Assembly (NCBI GenBank): GCA_001782045.1
Contig: MFNK01000003.1
Location: forward strand, 26,070 to 90,069
DNA from: Candidatus Levybacteria bacterium RIFCSPHIGHO2_01_FULL_36_15b
GTDB lineage: Bacteria > Patescibacteriota > Microgenomatia > Levybacterales > UBA12049
Reading direction: 5' to 3'
DNA length: 64,000 bases
Part shown: piece by piece, positions 7,011 through 44,399 of the stretch
Position numbering within the stretch: the first letter of the stretch is position 1
Layout: the number at the start of each line of letters is the position of its first letter
The notes under the pieces: generated by a model
Database searches by the model: none
The model's input: the letters and a program-made list of their open reading frames with translations, nothing else
Told to the model about the DNA's origin: nothing
Position numbers and translations under genes: made by a program

Positions 7011-8243
7011 ATGAGGTACAGTCAACTTTTTCCAAAAACGCAAAAAGAAGCACCCAGGGGGGCAGAGGCGGAAAATCACAAACTTTTAGTACGAGCGGGT
7101 TTTATAGACCAGCTTATGGCAGGAAGTTTTACTCTTTTACCACTTGGTTTTAGAGTTGTTGAAAAAATAAAACAAATAATCCGCGAAGAATTAAACACAA
7201 CGGGTGCGCAAGAAATGCTAATGCCTTTAATGCATCCTAGAGAAATTTGGAACGAAACAGGAAGATGGGAAAGCGCCAAAGAAGTAATGTATCAGTTTAA
7301 AAAGGATAATAAGGAATTTGCTCTGTCTTTTACACATGAGGAAATAATTGTTGACTTAATAAGAAAGCACAATATAAAACTTTCGGATTTTCCACTTAAG
7401 CTTTACCACTTTTCAACAAAATTTAGGCACGAATTACGAGCCAAAAGCGGAATTTTGCGCGGCAGAGAATTTTTAATGAAGGATTTATACAGCGCTCATC
7501 TAACAGAGGATGATATGTATAAATATTACAACGACGTAACTTCCGCTTATTTAAAAATATTTAAAAGAATTGGACTTGATGTTAAGGTTGTAGAAGCATC
7601 AGGTGGGGTATTTACAGATAAAAACAGCCACGAATTTCAAGTTTTATCAAGCGTTGGAGAAGATACCATTTTTTACTGTGACACTTGTGACTTTGCTCAA
7701 AACGATGAGATAGCAAAAGTTAAAGTAGGAGACAAATGCCCAAACTGCGATGGAAAAATCTTGACTTCAAAAGCAATTGAAGTTGGAAATATTTTTCCGC
7801 TTGGAACAAAATACAGCGAAAAAATGGGAGCTTTATATACAGACGAAAAAGGAAATCAAATGCCAGTCTGGCTTGCAAGCTATGGCATAGGGCCAACTAG
7901 GACCTTAGGAACTTTAGTTGAAGTATACAATGATGAAAAGGGAATAATTTGGCCAAAAAGCGTTTCTCCATTTGAAGTTCATCTGGTTCATATAGAAGAT
8001 CCCTCTACAGAAGAAACAGCAGAAAAAGTTTATAACACGCTTGTTGAGAATAAGGTTGATGTTTTATGGGATGATAGAAAAGACGCAAGCGCAGGAGAAA
8101 AATTTGCAACCGCGGACTTAATTGGAATTCCAATAAGGTTGGTTGTTTCTAAAAGAACAGAAGGTAAAATAGAATTTAAGACAAGAAATTCTGAAAAAGA
8201 AGAACTGCTTAGTTTAGAAGAAGTTTTAGAAAAATTAAAATAA
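7011..8243 (+). CDS. proS: prolyl-tRNA synthetase (compact class II form, with internal Cys4 zinc ribbon)
   Basis: Class II aaRS motifs (FRHELRAKSGILRGREF; GIGPTR); CDTCDF...CPNCDG insert. Start chosen at in-frame ATG 7011 (MRYSQLFPKTQKE); the track ORF starts further upstream at 6924. Confidence 0.85.
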   Translation: MRYSQLFPKTQKEAPRGAEAENHKLLVRAGFIDQLMAGSFTLLPLGFRVVEKIKQIIREELNTTGAQEMLMPLMHPREIWNETGRWESAKEVMYQFKKDNKEFALSFTHEEIIVDLIRKHNIKLSDFPLKLYHFSTKFRHELRAKSGILRGREFLMKDLYSAHLTEDDMYKYYNDVTSAYLKIFKRIGLDVKVVEASGGVFTDKNSHEFQVLSSVGEDTIFYCDTCDFAQNDEIAKVKVGDKCPNCDGKILTSKAIEVGNIFPLGTKYSEKMGALYTDEKGNQMPVWLASYGIGPTRTLGTLVEVYNDEKGIIWPKSVSPFEVHLVHIEDPSTEETAEKVYNTLVENKVDVLWDDRKDASAGEKFATADLIGIPIRLVVSKRTEGKIEFKTRNSEKEELLSLEEVLEKLK

Positions 8244-8651
8244 GCCAAATACTTTAGCCCAAATTATTGCATAAGCCGCAAAAAAGATAGTTCCCCCAAG
8301 CAAGAATACAATAGCCATAAAGCTGTGCCCTTTAGGCTTTTGCATACTTTGCATGTTGCCGTCTGTTTGCGTATAAATTGTAGGAGGAGGTTGTGGTGTT
8401 TGAACAAACGGATTTTGGGTAGGAAGGGGAGAAGGAGTCGGATTTGCGGGTTGGGGCGGTTGCACGGGAATACTTTGAATAGCGGGCTGCTGTTCCTCTG
8501 CCGGTTGAGTTTGCATAACGGGTTGATTTTGTGACTGCTGTGGTTGAGGTTGCGTTGCAGCTGTAGCTTGTGGGTTAAAATTAGTTCCCATAACCCTATC
8601 GTATGCTTCTTTGAGTTTTGGGTCTAAATCATTTACATTTTTTGGATTCAT
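8235..8651 (-). CDS. hypothetical Pro/Gln-rich protein with C-terminal TM anchor
   Basis: Low-complexity QPQPQQSQNQP... region followed by a hydrophobic C-terminus (AIVFLLGGTIFFAAYAIIWAKVFGLF). Confidence 0.4.
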   Translation of the reverse strand: MNPKNVNDLDPKLKEAYDRVMGTNFNPQATAATQPQPQQSQNQPVMQTQPAEEQQPAIQSIPVQPPQPANPTPSPLPTQNPFVQTPQPPPTIYTQTDGNMQSMQKPKGHSFMAIVFLLGGTIFFAAYAIIWAKVFGLF

Positions 8652-8720: not shown

Positions 8721-9203
8721 CTATCTATCTTCAAGCTGCGGATCTAATCCTTTAAAACCATTTTCATCGGTGGCTAGTTTAAAAACTAAAAAGTGAAGAT
8801 GAGGTTCGGTCATCCATCCCGAATTTCCAGTTACAGCTAGTTGCTGACCAGCTTTGACGAAATCTCCCTTTTTTACTTTTATAGATCCCTTGGCAAGATG
8901 AACCATTTGAGAAAATTCATCATTTTGATGGCCAATTGTTATGTAATTTGCGTCGTCTTTGAATTCTTCGGTAGGACCAAATCTGCTATGGCTATCGTCG
9001 GTATCCCTTACTATTCCGTCTAAAGGTGCAATAACCGGCGTACCTAATTTCATGGCATAATCAATTGCTCCTCGAAATGGCCCGACGTGAGCTGGTCCTT
9101 CTGTTTCCACCAAAGTTACGACAGTTTCCCTAGGAAAGGGTTTCTGATATTTGTTTTTGGTCTTTTCCAATGGTGGCAGTTCATTTTCCCTATGTTCTGA
9201 CAT
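8721..9203 (-). CDS. M23 family (LytM-type) metallopeptidase
   Basis: HxxxD ... GNSGWMTEPHLHF motif arrangement typical of peptidase M23. Confidence 0.8.
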   Translation of the reverse strand: MSEHRENELPPLEKTKNKYQKPFPRETVVTLVETEGPAHVGPFRGAIDYAMKLGTPVIAPLDGIVRDTDDSHSRFGPTEEFKDDANYITIGHQNDEFSQMVHLAKGSIKVKKGDFVKAGQQLAVTGNSGWMTEPHLHFLVFKLATDENGFKGLDPQLEDR

Positions 9204-9286
9204 ACGCTAATTATACCAAACCCTTTAATTATCAGCTCAAAAAAGGTATACTTAAAGACCGAACTTGTAGTGAGTTTATCGAATCT

Positions 9287-23995: not shown

Positions 23996-25030
23996 ATGGT
24001 ATCCAAGAAAATTTTAATACTCTTATTATTTATATCTCTTATTTCGTTAGTTTTTATAGCTGTAAAATTTTCTAATAAAGATTATAGCTTGATAACACCA
24101 AAAGGGTTTATAAATAATTCACAAGCGTTTGAATTTGAAGAACTAACAATACCATATCTTAGAGAAAAGGAATATAAAAGCACGCTGGGTAACTTAGAAG
24201 AATATTCAAAAAACTCAAACTACACTTCTTACTTAGCAAGTTATAATTCCGAAGGACTTAAAATTAATGGACTTTTAACAATACCGGAGGGAAAATCACC
24301 TAAAGGAGGGTGGCCTGCGATTGTTTTTATTCATGGATATATTCCTCCTACTTTGTATGAAACCACATCAAGATATGCTGATTACGTTGATTATTTAGCA
24401 AGAAATGGATTTGTAGTATTTAAAATAGATTTAAGAGGACATGGAAAGTCCGAAGGACAGCCGGGTGGAGCATATTATTCATCGGATTATATAATTGATA
24501 CTCTAAATGCTTACGCTGCTTTACAATCTTCTAATTTTGTAGACTCATCCCGCATTGGACTTTGGGGACATTCTATGGCGGGTAACGTAGTATTAAGAAG
24601 TCTTGCTGCAAAACCGGAAATTCCTGCTGTTGTTATTTGGGCAGGCGCGGTTTATTCTTACATGGATTTAGCAAAACATAGGTTAAACGACCAAAGCTAT
24701 AGACCATCTGCACTAATTACACAAAGGCAAGGACAAAGACAAAAGTTATTTAATACATACGGACAGTTTGATGAAAACAGCTCTTTTTGGAAACAGGTTG
24801 CAGCCACTAACTATTTATCCGACATTAAGGGTGCAATACAATTAAACCATGCAACAGACGATACTGTTGTGGATATTGGCTACAGCAGAGATTTAAATGA
24901 ATTGCTTGATAAAACATCAATTCCTCATGAGTTTTATGAATATGCAAGCGGAAGACACAATTTTACAGGTGCAAGTTTTACTCAAGCAATGCAAAACACA
25001 GTAGAGTTTTTTAATAAATATTTAAAGTAA
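23996..25030 (+). CDS. alpha/beta-hydrolase (S9/dienelactone-hydrolase-like) with N-terminal TM anchor
   Basis: GHSMAG nucleophile elbow (GxSxG); IHGY... oxyanion region; His near the C-terminus. Confidence 0.7.
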   Translation: MVSKKILILLLFISLISLVFIAVKFSNKDYSLITPKGFINNSQAFEFEELTIPYLREKEYKSTLGNLEEYSKNSNYTSYLASYNSEGLKINGLLTIPEGKSPKGGWPAIVFIHGYIPPTLYETTSRYADYVDYLARNGFVVFKIDLRGHGKSEGQPGGAYYSSDYIIDTLNAYAALQSSNFVDSSRIGLWGHSMAGNVVLRSLAAKPEIPAVVIWAGAVYSYMDLAKHRLNDQSYRPSALITQRQGQRQKLFNTYGQFDENSSFWKQVAATNYLSDIKGAIQLNHATDDTVVDIGYSRDLNELLDKTSIPHEFYEYASGRHNFTGASFTQAMQNTVEFFNKYLK

Positions 25031-25053
25031 ATTGACAAGGGGTAAAAATGGAG

Positions 25054-25383
25054 TTACTTTAATTTTTTTATTTGCTCTCTTTCTTTAGAATAATCAAAAG
25101 CGTTTTTAAGAAACGGTATAATTCTTTGGATATCGTCCTCTCCTGTTATTTCTATCTCCGCCCATGTTTTTCCAAAGTCAAATTTTATAAATCCTTCATC
25201 CAGTGAATTTTTAAACTCATCAGGGGAGAGTATTAACCATAAAAGCAGAATATTATTGTCTACAACTTTATATCCCGCAAAAAGATTTTTTCCCGTATAA
25301 ACACAAATCCAGCCAAAAGAATTGGAAAATCTAATTTGTCCCAAAGTCTCAATTTGCTCAACTAATAAATCTTTTAATTCCAC
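25054..25383 (-). CDS. TfoX N-terminal-domain-like protein
   Basis: IRFSNSFGWICVYTGKNLFAGYKV resembles the TfoX_N pattern R.MFGG.G.Y..G..FA (from memory). Confidence 0.4.
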   Translation of the reverse strand: MELKDLLVEQIETLGQIRFSNSFGWICVYTGKNLFAGYKVVDNNILLLWLILSPDEFKNSLDEGFIKFDFGKTWAEIEITGEDDIQRIIPFLKNAFDYSKEREQIKKLK

Positions 25384-25465
25384 ATTTTTATTTTAACACT
25401 TCATTTCCAGCCTTTATGCTGAGCCGATTCGGTCTGAGCTCACGGTCGAATGACTTGCCAAAGTA

Positions 25466-25482
25466 TTGACACCGCGGGAAAA
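25466..25482 (+). promoter_or_regulatory. 17-bp motif TTGACACCGCGGGAAAA (copy 1; -35-like hexamer plus CCGCGG palindrome)
   Basis: Identical 17-mer also at 25967-25983. Here it is followed by TAATAAT and sits 20 nt before the ATG at 25502. Confidence 0.4.
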
Positions 25483-25501
25483 CATGTAATAATAGCGATA
25501 T

Positions 25502-25945
25502 ATGTACGAAGTTTTATTAGATAAAGGTCAAGACGCATCAGATTTCGATGAATGGCATATTCCCAGGGAAGCAATAGATATATTAAAAACGGCAGTAGGT
25601 AAAGAAGTTAGGGTAGGAACGGAAACGGATGCCTATATGGATTTTGGAATAGCAGACACAGCAACATGGTATAGAACCAGAGAGGGGACTTTAGTTGATG
25701 TCAGGCCTAATGAAATTGTAATTGCCGAATTTCGAGGAAAAGGTAAAAAAAGAGTAGAAGTAGTCTTGCCTGCGGGAGCAACATCCTTTAACGAGGGCAA
25801 AGCCGATGAAAAAAGGATGGGTATTGAAAAAATGAGAAATGTATTTGGAATTATGGAAGATAACATAAAAACAATTTCTTTTTCCAAAGGAAAAGACAAA
25901 TTTGAATTACTCCATTTTAGTCAACCAAAAGAACCTCAACCTTAA
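25502..25945 (+). CDS. hypothetical protein (147 aa)
   Basis: ORF only; preceded by the repeated 17-bp motif. Confidence 0.4.
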   Translation: MYEVLLDKGQDASDFDEWHIPREAIDILKTAVGKEVRVGTETDAYMDFGIADTATWYRTREGTLVDVRPNEIVIAEFRGKGKKRVEVVLPAGATSFNEGKADEKRMGIEKMRNVFGIMEDNIKTISFSKGKDKFELLHFSQPKEPQP

Positions 25946-25966
25946 AATCTCCAAGCTTGACACCGC

Positions 25967-25983
25967 GGGAAAAGGGGAGGGCC
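25967..25983 (+). promoter_or_regulatory. 17-bp motif TTGACACCGCGGGAAAA (copy 2)
   Basis: Exact repeat of 25466-25482, 80 nt upstream of the ATG at 26064. A second TTGACA...TGATACAAA promoter-like element lies between it and the ATG. Confidence 0.4.
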
Positions 25984-26063
25984 CTAACTTTGCCTCATGT
26001 GTCTTTTGAAAGATTAACTTGACAAGTAAGTTAAGTTTGTGATACAAATATCTTGCTTGACTT

Positions 26064-26633
26064 ATGAATAACGAAAAAAGGGCACGAGTAAAGATATCAA
26101 TAAACGAAGGCCTAATAGAGCTTGAGGGGTCAGAGGAGTTTGTTGAAAAATATCTAATAGAGTTTAAAAATAAGTTAAGTTTTCCTTCGCATATGCCTAC
26201 TCTCAATAATCACCAACCCTCCGCACAGGTAGTACAACAAAAAAAAGATTCAGCTAATAAAGTCTCAGCTGTTAGACCAGCTAAATCAAAAGGCAAAAAT
26301 ATTGAGCCCGAAGAGTTTGAAATAAATAATAATAGCGATGATTCTTTAGCTAAATTTATGGAAAGTAAAAATCCAGGAGAAAATGCATGGAATAGAATAG
26401 TTGTTGTAGGTTATTACATAACACATAAATTGCAAAAAGCTAATTTCACTGAAGGAAATGTTGAATTTGCTTACAAGGCGCTAAGCTTAAATAAGCGGCC
26501 TCTCCATTTAAGGCAGGCATTTATTGATATGAAAAACAAGAAAAAATGGTTAGAGGAGTTGTCGGATGGAGGATGGACTCTTTCTAGGCTCGGAGAAATT
26601 TATGTTGAAGATCAAATGCTCCCTAAGTCTTAA
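26064..26633 (+). CDS. hypothetical protein (189 aa)
   Basis: ORF only; 2-nt gap to the next gene, so same operon. Confidence 0.4.
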   Translation: MNNEKRARVKISINEGLIELEGSEEFVEKYLIEFKNKLSFPSHMPTLNNHQPSAQVVQQKKDSANKVSAVRPAKSKGKNIEPEEFEINNNSDDSLAKFMESKNPGENAWNRIVVVGYYITHKLQKANFTEGNVEFAYKALSLNKRPLHLRQAFIDMKNKKKWLEELSDGGWTLSRLGEIYVEDQMLPKS

Positions 26634-26635
26634 TC

Positions 26636-27400
26636 ATGCAGCTAGATTTTAATTATCTTCTAGAAAAGAAACCAGATTTTTATGAACTTACGCAACGAGA
26701 GCAAATAAAATATCTTTGTTTTGTCTACTCCAAGAACAATAACCAACCTATTTTTGCACAAAAAGATATTAAGGATTTGTTTGAAGAGTTTAATCTTGTA
26801 GTACCATCTCATTTATCACAGGAATTCAGCAACTTAACCAAAGGAAAGGTTCCTGCTTTAGTCAAAAAAATAGGCGGATATGCAATTCATCCCAGCGTGG
26901 ATCGTTCCTTAACACTTGAATTATTCTCTAATACCAGTCCAGATGGAAACGAAAAAAAATCGCAAAACACGTCACTTTTTAGTAAATACGATTTTCATCC
27001 AGAAATAAAACGGGTGGCGTTTAGAGAGTTTCAAGATGGATATTATAAAACAGCGATACAAAACGCCTTAGTTGAGGTAATTGATCAGGTAAAAAATAGA
27101 ACCGATAACCCCACAGTAGAAAATAATGGTAGAAAGAAGGATTTAGATGGAGATGATTTGATGAATCGTGTATTTGGTTGTGATGGGGAGAATATTCCAA
27201 TGATTAGGTTTAATAGCTTAAGCAATGGTCTTGATAAAGCTGAACAGAGGGGTATAATGAATTTATTCAAAGGCATTGTTGGAGTAAGAGATAGAAAAGC
27301 ACATCTAAATTTTATTCAAAACGATCCCTTAAAAACAATTGAATATTTATCTCTTTCAAGTCTACTTATGAGACTTTTGGATGAAAATCCTCCTAGTTAA
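26636..27400 (+). CDS. Hypoth_Ymh/TIGR02391-like (HEPN-like, Rx4H) C-terminal domain protein with a novel N-terminal region
   Basis: FHPEIKRVAFREFQDGYYKTAIQNALVEV... then DKAEQRGIMNLFKGIVGVRDRKAHL: an Rx4H motif in the family-typical E-x-(E/Q)-x-G...LF-x-G...R-x-x-x-AH context (from memory). Confidence 0.45.
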   Translation: MQLDFNYLLEKKPDFYELTQREQIKYLCFVYSKNNNQPIFAQKDIKDLFEEFNLVVPSHLSQEFSNLTKGKVPALVKKIGGYAIHPSVDRSLTLELFSNTSPDGNEKKSQNTSLFSKYDFHPEIKRVAFREFQDGYYKTAIQNALVEVIDQVKNRTDNPTVENNGRKKDLDGDDLMNRVFGCDGENIPMIRFNSLSNGLDKAEQRGIMNLFKGIVGVRDRKAHLNFIQNDPLKTIEYLSLSSLLMRLLDENPPS

Positions 27401-27406
27401 ATTAAG

Positions 27407-27424
27407 TCTGCTATAATTAGCCTC
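27407..27424 (+). repeat. 18-bp direct repeat TCTGCTATAATTAGCCTC (left copy)
   Basis: Perfect copy at 28055-28072; contains an extended -10 (TGCTATAAT). Confidence 0.6.
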
Positions 27425-27482
27425 GTTTTTCCAATAGGCCTGTAGTTGCTAGTTTAATCTAATTTTGTTAAAATCTACCTCT

Positions 27483-28046
27483 ATGATTCCAGAAATTACT
27501 CCACATGGCAACCTCGATCTGCCGCACGAAGGTGGTGGTTTTGATCTGTTGGCGGAAGCCATGCGTTTAGACACCTCTGTTAGAGCTAGCATCGGATTAA
27601 ATAAGATGCAAGGGAATGAAAAGCTAAAAGAAAGACTCACGCGAGAGGTCTCAATAGGATTAGTTCTCGGGAGTAGGGAGCTTGGAATACCGATTCCATC
27701 TCTTAGTACTGAAAGGCAATTGGAAGATGGGAGACCTATTGCATACTCTGATTGGAGTGAGGAAAAAGGAGGAGAAATAATATTTATCAGGGGCTTTCTA
27801 ATGCGATTTGTAGTCAGAATGTATCGCGACCGGCCTTTTTATTTTGTAGTACCTCATGAGATGCTTCACATAAGACAATTAATGGATCACTATACAACGG
27901 TTAGAGCAGATCTTAAAGCCAAGGACTGGAAAAGAACGCTAACTGAAAGAGCTGCTGATGCTTTTGGCGATTCAGTTCTTCTTCGTTATGGTTCAGAAAT
28001 TCAATTAGCGCTCCAAGGCCTTCCGCCCGGCAATAGGGCTCGTTAA
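27483..28046 (+). CDS. HExxH-motif protein (putative ImmA/DUF955- or SprT-like zinc peptidase) in a GC-rich cassette
   Basis: VVPHEMLHIRQ motif. Local GC about 50-55% versus roughly 33-36% in flanking genes. Start set to ATG 27483; the track starts at a TTG. Confidence 0.45.
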   Translation: MIPEITPHGNLDLPHEGGGFDLLAEAMRLDTSVRASIGLNKMQGNEKLKERLTREVSIGLVLGSRELGIPIPSLSTERQLEDGRPIAYSDWSEEKGGEIIFIRGFLMRFVVRMYRDRPFYFVVPHEMLHIRQLMDHYTTVRADLKAKDWKRTLTERAADAFGDSVLLRYGSEIQLALQGLPPGNRAR

Positions 28047-28054
28047 ATATACTT

Positions 28055-28072
28055 CTGCTATAATTAGCCTCA
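28055..28072 (+). repeat. 18-bp direct repeat TCTGCTATAATTAGCCTC (right copy); doubles as the ychF promoter -10
   Basis: Ends 1 nt before the ychF ATG at 28074. Confidence 0.6.
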
Positions 28073-28073
28073 T

Positions 28074-29033
28074 ATGAATCTTTCGATTGGAATAGTCGGG
28101 CTTCCAAATGTTGGTAAAAGTACACTCTTTAATGCGCTTTTAAAGCGGCAGCAGGCTTTGGTTGCTAATTATCCTTTTGCAACAATTGAGCCAAATGTAG
28201 GCGTTGTTCCGGTTCCCGATGAAAGACTTGCGAAACTTGCCGAGATCGAGCAGTCAGAATATAAAATGACAAATCTTCCTCCGATAAAACCCGCGACCGT
28301 AAATTTCGTAGATATTGCAGGTTTGGTTAAAGGGGCAAATGAAGGAGCAGGTTTAGGAAATAAATTTTTATCTCATATTCGTGAGTCTTCAGTCATAGCT
28401 CACGTTGTAAGAGTTTTTGAAGATAGTAATGTTATAAAAGAGGGAAGTATAGATCCGCTCAATGATTACAAAGTCGTTAAAACAGAACTCGAGCTTGCAG
28501 ATTTAGAAAAAGGCGGAGAAATTGCTAAAAAGGCGGAAATTATTGTACTCAACGTTTCGGAAAGAGAGTACAATCCTGATTCTATTAAAAAAATAGTTGA
28601 TGATTATTCAAAGTTTTTAGAATTAGAACAGCATAAATTAATTGTTATTTCTGCAAAGATAGAATCAGAGCTTGCAGGGCTTAACGAAGAAGAACAAAAA
28701 GAGTATTTAAAAGATCTTGGATTGGAAAAATCAGGGCTAGAACGTCTTATCCAAAAAGCTTACGAAGAATTGGGTTTAATTTCATTTTTAACAGCGGGCG
28801 TTAAAGAGGTTAGGGCTTGGACAGTTCGACTCGGTTCCACCTCGCTCACTGCGGCAGGGGAGATTCATACAGACTTTATGAAAAAATTTATAAAAGCAGA
28901 AGTTGTTACGCTTGAGGATTTCATAGAGTTCAATGGATGGAAGGGAAGTCGCGAACACGGAAAAACAAGGCTGGAAGGAAGAGACTATATTGTAAAAGAC
29001 GGGGATATTATAGAGTTTAAAATTGGAGCTTAA
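28074..29033 (+). CDS. ychF: ribosome-binding ATPase YchF (Obg-family GTPase fold)
   Basis: GIVGLPNVGKSTLFNALL, NFVDIAGLVKGA, C-terminal TGS-like region. Confidence 0.85.
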   Translation: MNLSIGIVGLPNVGKSTLFNALLKRQQALVANYPFATIEPNVGVVPVPDERLAKLAEIEQSEYKMTNLPPIKPATVNFVDIAGLVKGANEGAGLGNKFLSHIRESSVIAHVVRVFEDSNVIKEGSIDPLNDYKVVKTELELADLEKGGEIAKKAEIIVLNVSEREYNPDSIKKIVDDYSKFLELEQHKLIVISAKIESELAGLNEEEQKEYLKDLGLEKSGLERLIQKAYEELGLISFLTAGVKEVRAWTVRLGSTSLTAAGEIHTDFMKKFIKAEVVTLEDFIEFNGWKGSREHGKTRLEGRDYIVKDGDIIEFKIGA

Positions 29034-30036: not shown

Positions 30037-30546
30037 ATGCCAAAATCACTAAACAGAGTACAATTAATCGGAAATTTAACAAGAGACCCTGAACTTAGAT
30101 ATACGCCAAGCGGCACTGCCGTTTGTTCTTTTAGCGTTGCAACAAACAGAAGTTGGACGCTTGACAGCGGCGAAAAGAAAGACGAAACTGAATTTCATAG
30201 AATTGTTGCATGGAGTAAGCTCGCCGAAATTTGCAGCCAGTTTTTAACAAAGGGAAGAAAAGTCTTTGTTGAAGGAAGACTCACAACTCGAAGCTGGACA
30301 GCGCAGGACGGAACTCAAAAAAACACTACAGAAATAGTAATTTCGGACATGATTTTACTGGACAACCGAAGAACGGAAGGGGATCAAACCTCCGAGCCTG
30401 TAGTGGAAGAAAAAGAAGCTCCTAAAAAAGCACGTTCGACAAGCTCAGTACAAGCGAAAAAAGAAGAATCCATTCAGCAAGCTCAGGACAAGCAAGAAGA
30501 AGCTCCTCCGGTTGAGGACATAGCTGCAGACGATATCCCGTTCTAG
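30037..30546 (+). CDS. ssb: single-stranded DNA-binding protein
   Basis: OB-fold N-terminus NRVQLIGNLTRDPELRYTPSG, acidic C-terminal tail ending DDIPF. Confidence 0.9.
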   Translation: MPKSLNRVQLIGNLTRDPELRYTPSGTAVCSFSVATNRSWTLDSGEKKDETEFHRIVAWSKLAEICSQFLTKGRKVFVEGRLTTRSWTAQDGTQKNTTEIVISDMILLDNRRTEGDQTSEPVVEEKEAPKKARSTSSVQAKKEESIQQAQDKQEEAPPVEDIAADDIPF

Positions 30547-37346: not shown

Positions 37347-37424
37347 ATGCTAATTATAGCTGAAATTGGAATTTAAAACAAGATTCGGGCTCAATATTTT
37401 GCTAGGCAGTGGTATAATTTTTTC

Positions 37425-44036: not shown

Positions 44037-44305
44037 TGGACGGACAAAATGATATGCCAGGAGCAGGAGCTCCAACACAAGATCCGATGCAAACTCCTCC
44101 GGCAGGTACGGATACACCACCTGCAACTCCGGTTGATGATCAAATGCCAGGAGCAGGAGAGCCAGCAGCACCGGTTGGTACACCGGAACCAATGCCAGAA
44201 CCAGGAACAGGGACTGGCGAACCTATGCCAGCACCTCAAGATGATCAAAATCAAGGAGGTCAAGGCGGAGCAGGAGGCGGAATGCCCCCTGGTCAAGGAA
44301 TGTAA
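44036..44305 (+). CDS. Pro/Gly/Thr-rich low-complexity protein translationally coupled to dnaB
   Basis: TAATG overlap with the dnaB stop; imperfect internal repeat MPGAGAP.../MPGAGEP...; GC-rich. Three overlapping ORFs are predicted here; the coupled plus-strand frame was chosen. Confidence 0.35.
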   Translation: MDGQNDMPGAGAPTQDPMQTPPAGTDTPPATPVDDQMPGAGEPAAPVGTPEPMPEPGTGTGEPMPAPQDDQNQGGQGGAGGGMPPGQGM

Positions 44306-44399
44306 TCTGATATTAGATTATTACAAATTAAACTAATCCTAAAAGAAATTGCAGGGTTAGTTTAATTTTTTTGATCGAAACTGATATAATTACAGTCGC

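Follow-up and report, generated by a model that had tools for sequence, protein, structure and literature searches.

A perfect 18-bp direct repeat around an orphan gene upstream of ychF in a Levybacteria genome: probable copies of a leaderless promoter module at a hypervariable locus

The window analysed here, that is, the whole stretch of 64,000 nucleotides from Candidatus Levybacteria bacterium RIFCSPHIGHO2_01_FULL_36_15b (assembly GCA_001782045.1, contig MFNK01000003.1, positions 26,070 to 90,069 of the forward strand), contains the sequence TCTGCTATAATTAGCCTC exactly twice on its plus strand, at positions 27407-27424 and 28054-28071, the chance expectation for matches to this 18-mer with up to three mismatches being 0.04 per window. 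The identity of the two copies ends abruptly on both sides, with g and t as the preceding and g and a as the following bases. Between them lies a single open reading frame (ORF), referred to here as gene D, and directly behind the right, proximal copy, after a gap of 2 nt, stands the ATG of ychF (Table 1). An earlier note on this DNA, made from its letters, had reported both the perfect pair and the one HEMLH-bearing gene between its members, and in this it was right, except that it had placed the proximal copy one position too far to the right, at 28055-28072.

Exact matches to the 18-mer were collected from JGI and ENA metagenome contigs, yielding 38 stretches (L088-L125; contigs used for comparison are cited by such numbers throughout) and, from these, 44 non-redundant contexts. 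In 26 of the 44, an ATG or GTG situated 0-3 nt after the 18-mer opens an ORF that is at least 50 amino acids long or runs off the contig, and in 7 further contexts a start codon stands at the same distance with a short or truncated ORF behind it. In other words, a start codon follows at 0-3 nt in 33 of the 44 contexts, as compared with approximately 19% expected by chance. At the first base 3' of the 18-mer, 39 contexts have a purine, at the second 33 have a T, and the ten bases 5' of it are unconserved except for a preference for T at -1 relative to the module. The genes that stand downstream are mutually unrelated and include ychF (many times), lepA, AadA-like and ANT(2'')-like nucleotidyltransferases, an MFS transporter, a HAD hydrolase, GIY-YIG, HEPN and HTH_17 proteins, and orphans. 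Since the same boundaries are encountered before the starts of so many unrelated genes, we take the 18-mer to be a functional module that existed beforehand, rather than a sequence duplicated de novo at this locus. Near-copies found elsewhere retain GCTATAATTAGCC, and their differences are confined to the edges.

The anatomy of this module, TC-TG-C-TATAAT-TAGCCTC, can be read as spanning -18 to -1 of a leaderless promoter that is independent of a -35 and has a TG-extended -10, with TG at -15/-14, a 7-nt discriminator that ends in a pyrimidine (C-1) and a purine at +1, if one follows the Ex/-10/Dis/start architecture (PMC12641261). Such a promoter has TGn and a TATAAT-like hexamer approximately 7 nt before the purine of a start codon, and an ATG or GTG does follow the module at 0-3 nt in the 33 contexts mentioned, the gap being 2 nt for the right copy in the window, which contains TGCTATAAT. 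Because +1 would be the A or G of the start codon itself, the messenger RNAs made from such a promoter should be leaderless. Judging from the sequence, leaderless genes are a general feature of this genome. TATAAT stands 5-9 nt before the ATG of 10 or more genes of the window, the core GCTATAATTAGC also stands 2 nt before the ATG of rpmE (37349-37360, minus strand), and GGTATAATTAGC is located at 9206-9217 on the minus strand, 2 nt before the ATG of the gene starting at 9203. Relatives from the candidate phyla radiation (CPR) generally carry TGnTAnAAT 5-8 nt ahead of the ychF ATG. That said, the discriminators of the other TATAAT promoters in the window are varied and unrelated, which argues that the exact 18-mer is a copied unit and not a general sequence requirement.

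By its placement, the proximal copy is the ancestral promoter of ychF, since exactly the same 18-mer directly fronts ychF in seven other contigs (L089, L090, L103, L104, L105, L106 and L107), whose YchF proteins are 58-97% identical to that of the window. The same observation bears out the assignment of the right repeat to the ychF promoter, as made in the earlier note. On the 3' side of ychF, the order rpsF-ssb-rpsR-ctpA is kept across the CPR. On its 5' side, the segment 21163-28046 is without conservation in any of the GTDB relatives compared. The alpha/beta-hydrolase gene that borders the variable interval on the left has a homologue upstream of ychF in L124, and others close to the 18-mer in L105, L115 and L125, the intervening genes being different ones. 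In particular, the ychF genes of L101 and L116 are 98.2% identical in DNA sequence, with the similarity starting at approximately codon 7-8, and yet their upstream genes differ, L101 having a nucleotidyltransferase and L116 an HTH_17 gene together with a reverse-strand gene. The interval between the hydrolase gene and ychF is a hypervariable hotspot of accessory genes. As a separate observation on the anchor gene, tblastn alignments of the window's YchF (319 amino acids) with CPR relatives span 335-385 columns, meaning that the YchF of this lineage lacks an internal segment that is present in the relatives.

Several contigs carry the 18-mer more than once, namely L095, L105, L113, L114 and L119 with two copies, and L110 and L115 with arrays of three copies before three successive genes. 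What is more, the layout seen in the window, that is, an 18-mer, a gene, a second 18-mer or near-copy and the start of ychF, recurs with unrelated inserts. The insert is a 257-amino-acid orphan in L094 and a 266-nt conserved element in L105, with an intact ychF after the second copy in both; in L113/L119 it is a 67-amino-acid gene (DUF2283-like, named from sequence) and in L098 a short ORF together with a homologue of that L113 gene, and here the second copy is followed by an 18-nt remnant of the 5' end of ychF. In L101, L122 and L123, only a distal 18-mer is present, and a gene separates it from ychF. Remnants in which the 18-mer and the first 18-40 nt of ychF give way to unrelated DNA were seen in L091, L093, L098, L099, L109, L113, L114 and L121, with breakpoints that range from +18 to +40 and cluster at +18 to +23, and three of these contigs (L091, L093 and L121) also contain, downstream of the remnant, an intact ychF that is preceded by another promoter. 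The 266-nt element of L105 (9038-9303 of the oriented contig) deserves a mention of its own: it is also present in L115, L116, L106 and L101, is 94-100% conserved, is bounded by the 18-mer, and has its own TTGACA-17-CATAAT site and a 70-amino-acid proline-rich ORF. It is absent from the window, and an Rfam search of four loci that carry it gave no match.

The window has a second perfect direct repeat, the 17-nt sequence TTGACACCGCGGGAAAA, whose copies at 25466-25482 and 25957-25973 flank gene A. L105, L106 and L115 contain the 17-mer as well, sharply delimited, and in L105 and L115 it is located directly upstream of the 18-mer. Because it recurs in this fashion and supplies the -35 and spacer of the promoter-like site of gene A (Table 1), it appears that both perfect repeats of the window are lineage-wide promoter blocks. 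A viral origin of the repeats was considered and rejected, the 18-mer being absent from IMG/VR and a lone 17-mer match lying inside a coding sequence, where it looks like chance.

Turning to gene D, its GC content is 0.431 (z = +2.0 among the 75 ORFs of the window), and the highest value reached in any 300-nt window, in the gene D region, is 0.45, well short of the 50-55% that the earlier note had estimated. A GC content of this order is no mark of foreignness, as 43% is also reached by ssb (0.433), next to which one may place the ORF at 8235-8651 (0.432). Of 60 ORFs in the window, gene D nevertheless fits worst in its synonymous codon usage (z = -3.1), and for this reason some compositional foreignness of gene D is real. 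Among 5.8 billion clustered proteins, gene D has one homologue (P0002, 59% identity, GCA_964481995.1), and an exhaustive HMMER profile search of 1.84 billion representatives added no further credible one, its sole extra match being a 1012-amino-acid protein with E = 3e-4 that aligns outside the HExxH region; the check on a donor lineage that had been proposed thus brought up a single homologue. Identity between the two genes is 0.67/0.78/0.46 at the three codon positions, which points to a genuine coding gene. Where gene D has HEMLH, the homologue has HEAYH, such that H125, E126 and H129 are invariant in both, and one may guess from the motif that the protein is a small HExxH metal-dependent hydrolase. 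Comparison with Pfam (0 families at E <= 0.1), NCBIfam (0) and PDB sequences (no peptidase) gave nothing significant, and neither did that with PADLOC (best PD-Lambda-2_B, E = 0.058) and PHROGs (only a transposase family, E = 0.25). An AlphaFold2 model (mean pLDDT 40, pTM 0.32) is too poor for use. The earlier assignment to ImmA/DUF955 or SprT-like peptidases therefore finds no profile match in any of these collections: what ImmA/IrrE (Peptidase_M78/DUF955) and SprT-like proteins share with gene D is an HExxH in a small protein of a variable region, a motif that is not diagnostic, and gene D shows neither detectable sequence similarity to them nor a conserved partner gene.

The homologue of gene D in L001 sits in a different neighbourhood, comprising MazE/Fic, DUF7718, an 80-amino-acid ORF and a phosphoribosyltransferase, with no Ymh/HEPN or HTH gene adjacent. 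Consequently, there is no conserved link between gene D and the Ymh/HEPN gene that precedes it in the window, and the idea of a protease next to a toxin as a module is not supported. The homologue is itself flanked by imperfect (80-88%) copies of another intergenic module, which is present in five intergenic regions of its contig and starts with a promoter-like site, TTGAYY-N17-TATATT; an attC-like structure in this module was rejected, as it folds no better than shuffled sequences (z = -0.44). Two further observations concern the 3' part of gene D. Five short contigs from independent assemblies (L128, L129, L132/L133, L134 and L135), each 99.6-100% identical to the window, begin or end within 27930-28007, and these shared ends possibly reflect strain heterogeneity or a coverage effect. 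In addition, the 14-nt arms of a perfect inverted repeat, GTTCTTCTTCGTTA / TAACGAAGAAGAAC, lie 693 nt apart, the first at 27975-27988, at the 3' end of gene D, and the second at 28682-28695, in ychF.

With reasonable though by no means full confidence, we read the two 18-mers as two copies of a lineage-wide promoter module of the Levybacteria, which are very small bacteria of groundwater, and gene D as an orphan accessory gene in the hypervariable slot upstream of ychF. Gene D is accessory and was probably acquired horizontally, since the region upstream of ychF is unconserved, the contents of the slot differ between close relatives, the codon usage of gene D is atypical and its homologue resides in another context. 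The earlier reading of the locus as a foreign insertion can be retained to this extent, but not its second half, a duplication of an 18-bp target site by an integron, an integrase or a transposase, given a pre-existing module and given that neither a recombinase nor terminal inverted repeats nor an attC-like structure were found in the interval. Each unit between the hydrolase gene and ychF tends to have a promoter block drawn from a small standard set. As to how such an arrangement might come about, genes may be gained or swapped by recombination that uses these short shared blocks, as well as the highly conserved 5' end of ychF, which codes for the P-loop, as homology. If a module-bounded unit were to recombine at the copy that belongs to ychF, the order of 18-mer, gene, 18-mer and ychF would arise automatically. 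Selection would then be expected to keep the duplicated promoter directly before ychF, because a leaderless ychF needs its promoter immediately before the ATG.

Several points weigh against this interpretation. The promoter role of the 18-mer is deduced from position and consensus. The left copy is not simply the promoter of gene D, as had been suggested, seeing that it lies 58 nt from the ATG and has no start codon after it; the 58-nt stretch is without a Shine-Dalgarno-like sequence, and gene D has a promoter-like site of its own. The metagenome scan covered exact matches, from which the true variability of the module is not measurable, and a few of the 38 stretches could be chance matches, by a rough estimate for an 18-mer in so large a database. 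What is more, 18 bp is short for RecA-dependent recombination, and the recurrent layout of 18-mer, insert, 18-mer and ychF would equally fit a dedicated recombination system. Finally, an empty site, with a single 18-mer between the Ymh gene and ychF, had been named as a check, and none was found in relatives or in population contigs. Nine contigs from the window's own population are all colinear with it, and exact-protein look-ups with gene D, YchF and Ymh returned only contigs that are colinear with the window and 99.6-100% identical. The relatives recovered by a GTDB scan with YchF are at most 59% identical and lack upstream synteny, so that an empty site cannot be defined at the nucleotide level from that scan.

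How does this reading compare with others? One could argue that the 18-mer is the promoter-embedded att site of an integron-like cassette system whose recombinase is encoded elsewhere, gene D being a 647-bp cassette that was inserted at ychF's copy. This is unlikely in our estimation, but it has the recurrent layout on its side, with single unrelated genes between two 18-mers ahead of the ychF start in the window, L094, L098, L113/L119 and L105, and also the arrays of L110 and L115, in which each gene is bounded by the exact 18-mer. The cargo, too, is of the cassette type (aminoglycoside nucleotidyltransferases, HEPN, GIY-YIG and a probable toxin-antitoxin pair, named from sequence), and the core GCTA-TAAT-TAGC is weakly palindromic. 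However, there is no recombinase in the interval: profile searches detected no recombinase domain in gene A, gene B, Ymh or orf109, and there is no IntI among the Pfam matches obtained for 21-33 kb of the window. Nor does the 18-mer have attC features, in that no attC-like inverted repeat was found in 27400-28075 and the 18-mer holds only a 4+4 nt palindrome, with no significant inverted repeat or hairpin. Furthermore, the module also stands before the core genes lepA and ychF, the genes of L101, L122 and L123 lie between module and ychF with no second copy, the 5' breakpoints in ychF are scattered from +18 to +40 instead of falling at one site, and the nine population contigs show no excised or empty state. 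A broader form of the same idea, in which the 18-nt core promoter would serve in the Levybacteria clade, and perhaps in the wider CPR, both as a leaderless transcription signal and as the site at which a gene-cassette system recombines, strikes us as rather improbable. If true, it would amount to an integron-like platform with a promoter as its att site, where module-bounded single genes are excised and inserted at other copies, preferentially at ychF, with the cassettes recombined by some recombinase or through RecA-independent recombination at short homologies.

We likewise see little chance that the two copies are independent operator and promoter sites whose identity is maintained by selection for a common regulator, neither copying nor insertion having played a part. 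The palindromic core GCTA-N4-TAGC, the exact conservation across species with 58% YchF identity, and the variants that retain GCTATAATTAGCC and differ at the edges would all suit such a scenario, but the left copy is 58 nt away from a gene with its own promoter-like site, the slot varies among close relatives, and the other TATAAT promoters of the window have unrelated discriminators. As for classical target-site duplication, whereby a transposase, a casposase-like enzyme or an integrase would have made an 18-bp staggered cut in the ychF promoter and inserted gene D, we consider it very improbable because, even though the perfect direct repeats adjoin a compositionally atypical single gene, their boundaries coincide with those of a pre-existing module known from dozens of contexts (44 non-redundant copies), the inner ends of the repeat-bounded segment, GTTTTTCCAATAGG... 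and ...GGCTCGTTAAATATACT, are mutually non-complementary, with no terminal inverted repeats found there in the inverted-repeat search of the window, a transposase is lacking, the sole enclosed ORF being gene D with no family, and another perfect pair, unrelated in sequence and at a distance of 2 kb, is a promoter block as well. To our knowledge, 18 bp is also longer than the target-site duplications of the described families of bacterial insertion sequences (IS).

The remaining features of the interval are summarized in Table 1. The gene immediately upstream of the left 18-mer matches PF09509 (E = 2.2e-19) and TIGR02391 (E = 8.9e-11), and its translation contains an Rx4-6H motif (RDRKAH); weak PADLOC matches of the same protein are to Aga_HEPN (E = 5.6e-7) and PD-Lambda-3_B (E = 2e-5). 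Gene B is a probable operon partner of this Ymh gene, and together the two may constitute a two-gene defence or toxin module. An Rfam search of 24900-28300 gave no match.

Table 1. Features of the variable interval upstream of ychF (positions in the window)
Feature	Position	Strand	Remarks
alpha/beta-hydrolase gene	23996..25030	+	conserved left border of the variable interval; profile match, recurrence in contigs
REP-like element, 51 nt	25413..25463	.	TTCG...GCTCAG units; counterpart near gene D homologue in L001
Left 17-mer copy	25466..25482	+	-35 and spacer of promoter-like site TTGACA-16-AATAAT with TG, 8 nt before gene A ATG
Gene A, 147 amino acids	25502..25945	+	ORF flanked by the 17-mer pair; no family
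Right 17-mer copy, TTGACACCGCGGGAAAA	25957..25973	+	extends as ...GGGGAG, as in L115; no -10 after it
Gene B, 189 amino acids	26064..26633	+	no family; ends 2 nt before Ymh gene
Hypoth_Ymh/TIGR02391 accessory gene	26636..27400	+	HEPN-like, RDRKAH motif; profile matches
Left (distal) 18-mer copy, TCTGCTATAATTAGCCTC	27407..27424	+	no start codon after it; 58 nt to gene D ATG
Gene D promoter-like site	27446..27474	+	TTGCTA-17-TAAAAT, TG upstream of second hexamer; consensus match; 8 nt before ATG
Gene D, 187-amino-acid orphan protein	27483..28046	+	HEMLH at residues 125-129; ORF, homologue comparison
Right (proximal) 18-mer copy	28054..28071	+	predicted native ychF promoter; TG-extended -10, discriminator; ATG 2 nt downstream
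ychF, 319 amino acids	28074..29033	+	first gene of conserved block ychF-(amidase)-rpsF-ssb-rpsR-ctpA; right border of the variable interval

The element resembling repetitive extragenic palindromes (REP) is 96-98% identical, in reverse orientation, to positions 6614-6660 of L001, although the gene D homologue of that contig is only 59% identical, and in L001-L003 it is placed just downstream of this homologue. Shorter relatives of it (CCTTCGnnnAGCTCAGGAT) are inserted in L096, where they separate the 18-mer from the ychF ATG, in L124, following the 18-mer, and in L022, within the 5' end of ychF. The possibility that the element is a structured RNA was discarded on account of folding z-scores of -0.75 and -0.24. 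Further downstream, in the part of ssb that codes for the C-terminal linker (30435-30498), two tandem 26-nt units, TTCGACAAGCTCAGTACAAGCGAAAA and TTCAGCAAGCTCAGGACAAGCAAGAA, resemble the TTCG...GCTCAG repeat family, and these may explain the raised GC content of ssb (43%). The strongest compositional outlier of the window lies elsewhere, at 44049-44336 (51% GC, GC3 0.74, z = +4.1); it has internal 29-nt repeats (ATGCCAGGAGCAGGAGC...), and its listed frame translates poorly.

Why should a repeat of this size matter? Because CPR/Patescibacteria are uncultured, the regulatory grammar of their genes is almost unexplored, and here one clade would seem to employ two blocks, an exact leaderless one of 18 nt and another of 17 nt, as exchangeable parts, before core and accessory genes alike, in a slot upstream of ychF whose contents turn over even between strains with 98% identical ychF. 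The 18-mer is a concrete, testable candidate promoter for the synthetic or heterologous expression of CPR genes, as well as a marker for accessory-gene hotspots in these genomes, and at this locus one could ask, in a natural setting, whether gene gain is driven by short promoter repeats. It also carries a caution, namely that perfect direct repeats around a gene do not by themselves prove transposition.

Promoters of leaderless genes, with a -10-like motif a few nucleotides upstream of the start codon, are known from Deinococcus-Thermus and Actinobacteria. The 18-mer resembles leaderless promoters of the Ex/-10/Dis/start kind (PMC12641261) in having TG at -15/-14, TATAAT, a 7-nt gap and a purine at +1 that belongs to the start codon, but differs from ordinary leaderless promoters in that all of its 18 positions are exact across genes and species, whereas those share only the -10 box. 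Our search of the literature on leaderless promoter modules in the CPR found no paper describing them. With integron cassettes, the 18-mer units have in common that they are small and carry a single gene, that the functions of these genes are diverse and often unknown, with nucleotidyltransferases among them, and that they form arrays bounded by a short repeat. However, no IntI, attC hairpin or Pc/attI platform was found, and the 18-mer units carry their own promoter at the 5' end, whereas most cassettes of integrons lack a promoter and have attC at their 3' end. A further parallel is homology-facilitated illegitimate recombination, or hotspot replacement, between conserved flanking genes (PMC3240628), an example of which is provided by arrays of type VI secretion system (T6SS) effectors (PMC5361080). 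There, as at the ychF locus, a conserved anchor gene stands beside variable cargo, the end of the anchor leaves duplicated remnants, and the cargo of relatives differs; in the present case, by contrast, the left joints fall at promoter blocks and not at random microhomologies, and the process itself is inferred from sequence. Finally, putative mobile promoters (PMPs; Matus-Garcia, Nijveen and van Passel 2012; PMC3575422) are defined by an identity of 80% or more across a minimum of 50 nt in the region from -150 to -50 upstream of non-paralogous genes. Like the 18-mer, they place a highly similar promoter before non-homologous genes, within and across taxa, with no IS involved and by means of movement that are unknown. 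Measured against that definition, the 18-mer falls outside, since its identity extends over only 18 nt (17 nt for the second module) at -18 to -1, with unrelated flanks. Moreover, the PMP region excludes the -10 box, whereas the 18-mer is, as we read it, the core promoter itself, abuts the start codon, marks units that resemble cassettes and forms arrays at a hotspot of accessory genes. In conceptual terms, then, the locus belongs with promoter reuse and 'putative mobile promoters', and its particular form is the modular reuse of a promoter at an accessory-gene hotspot.

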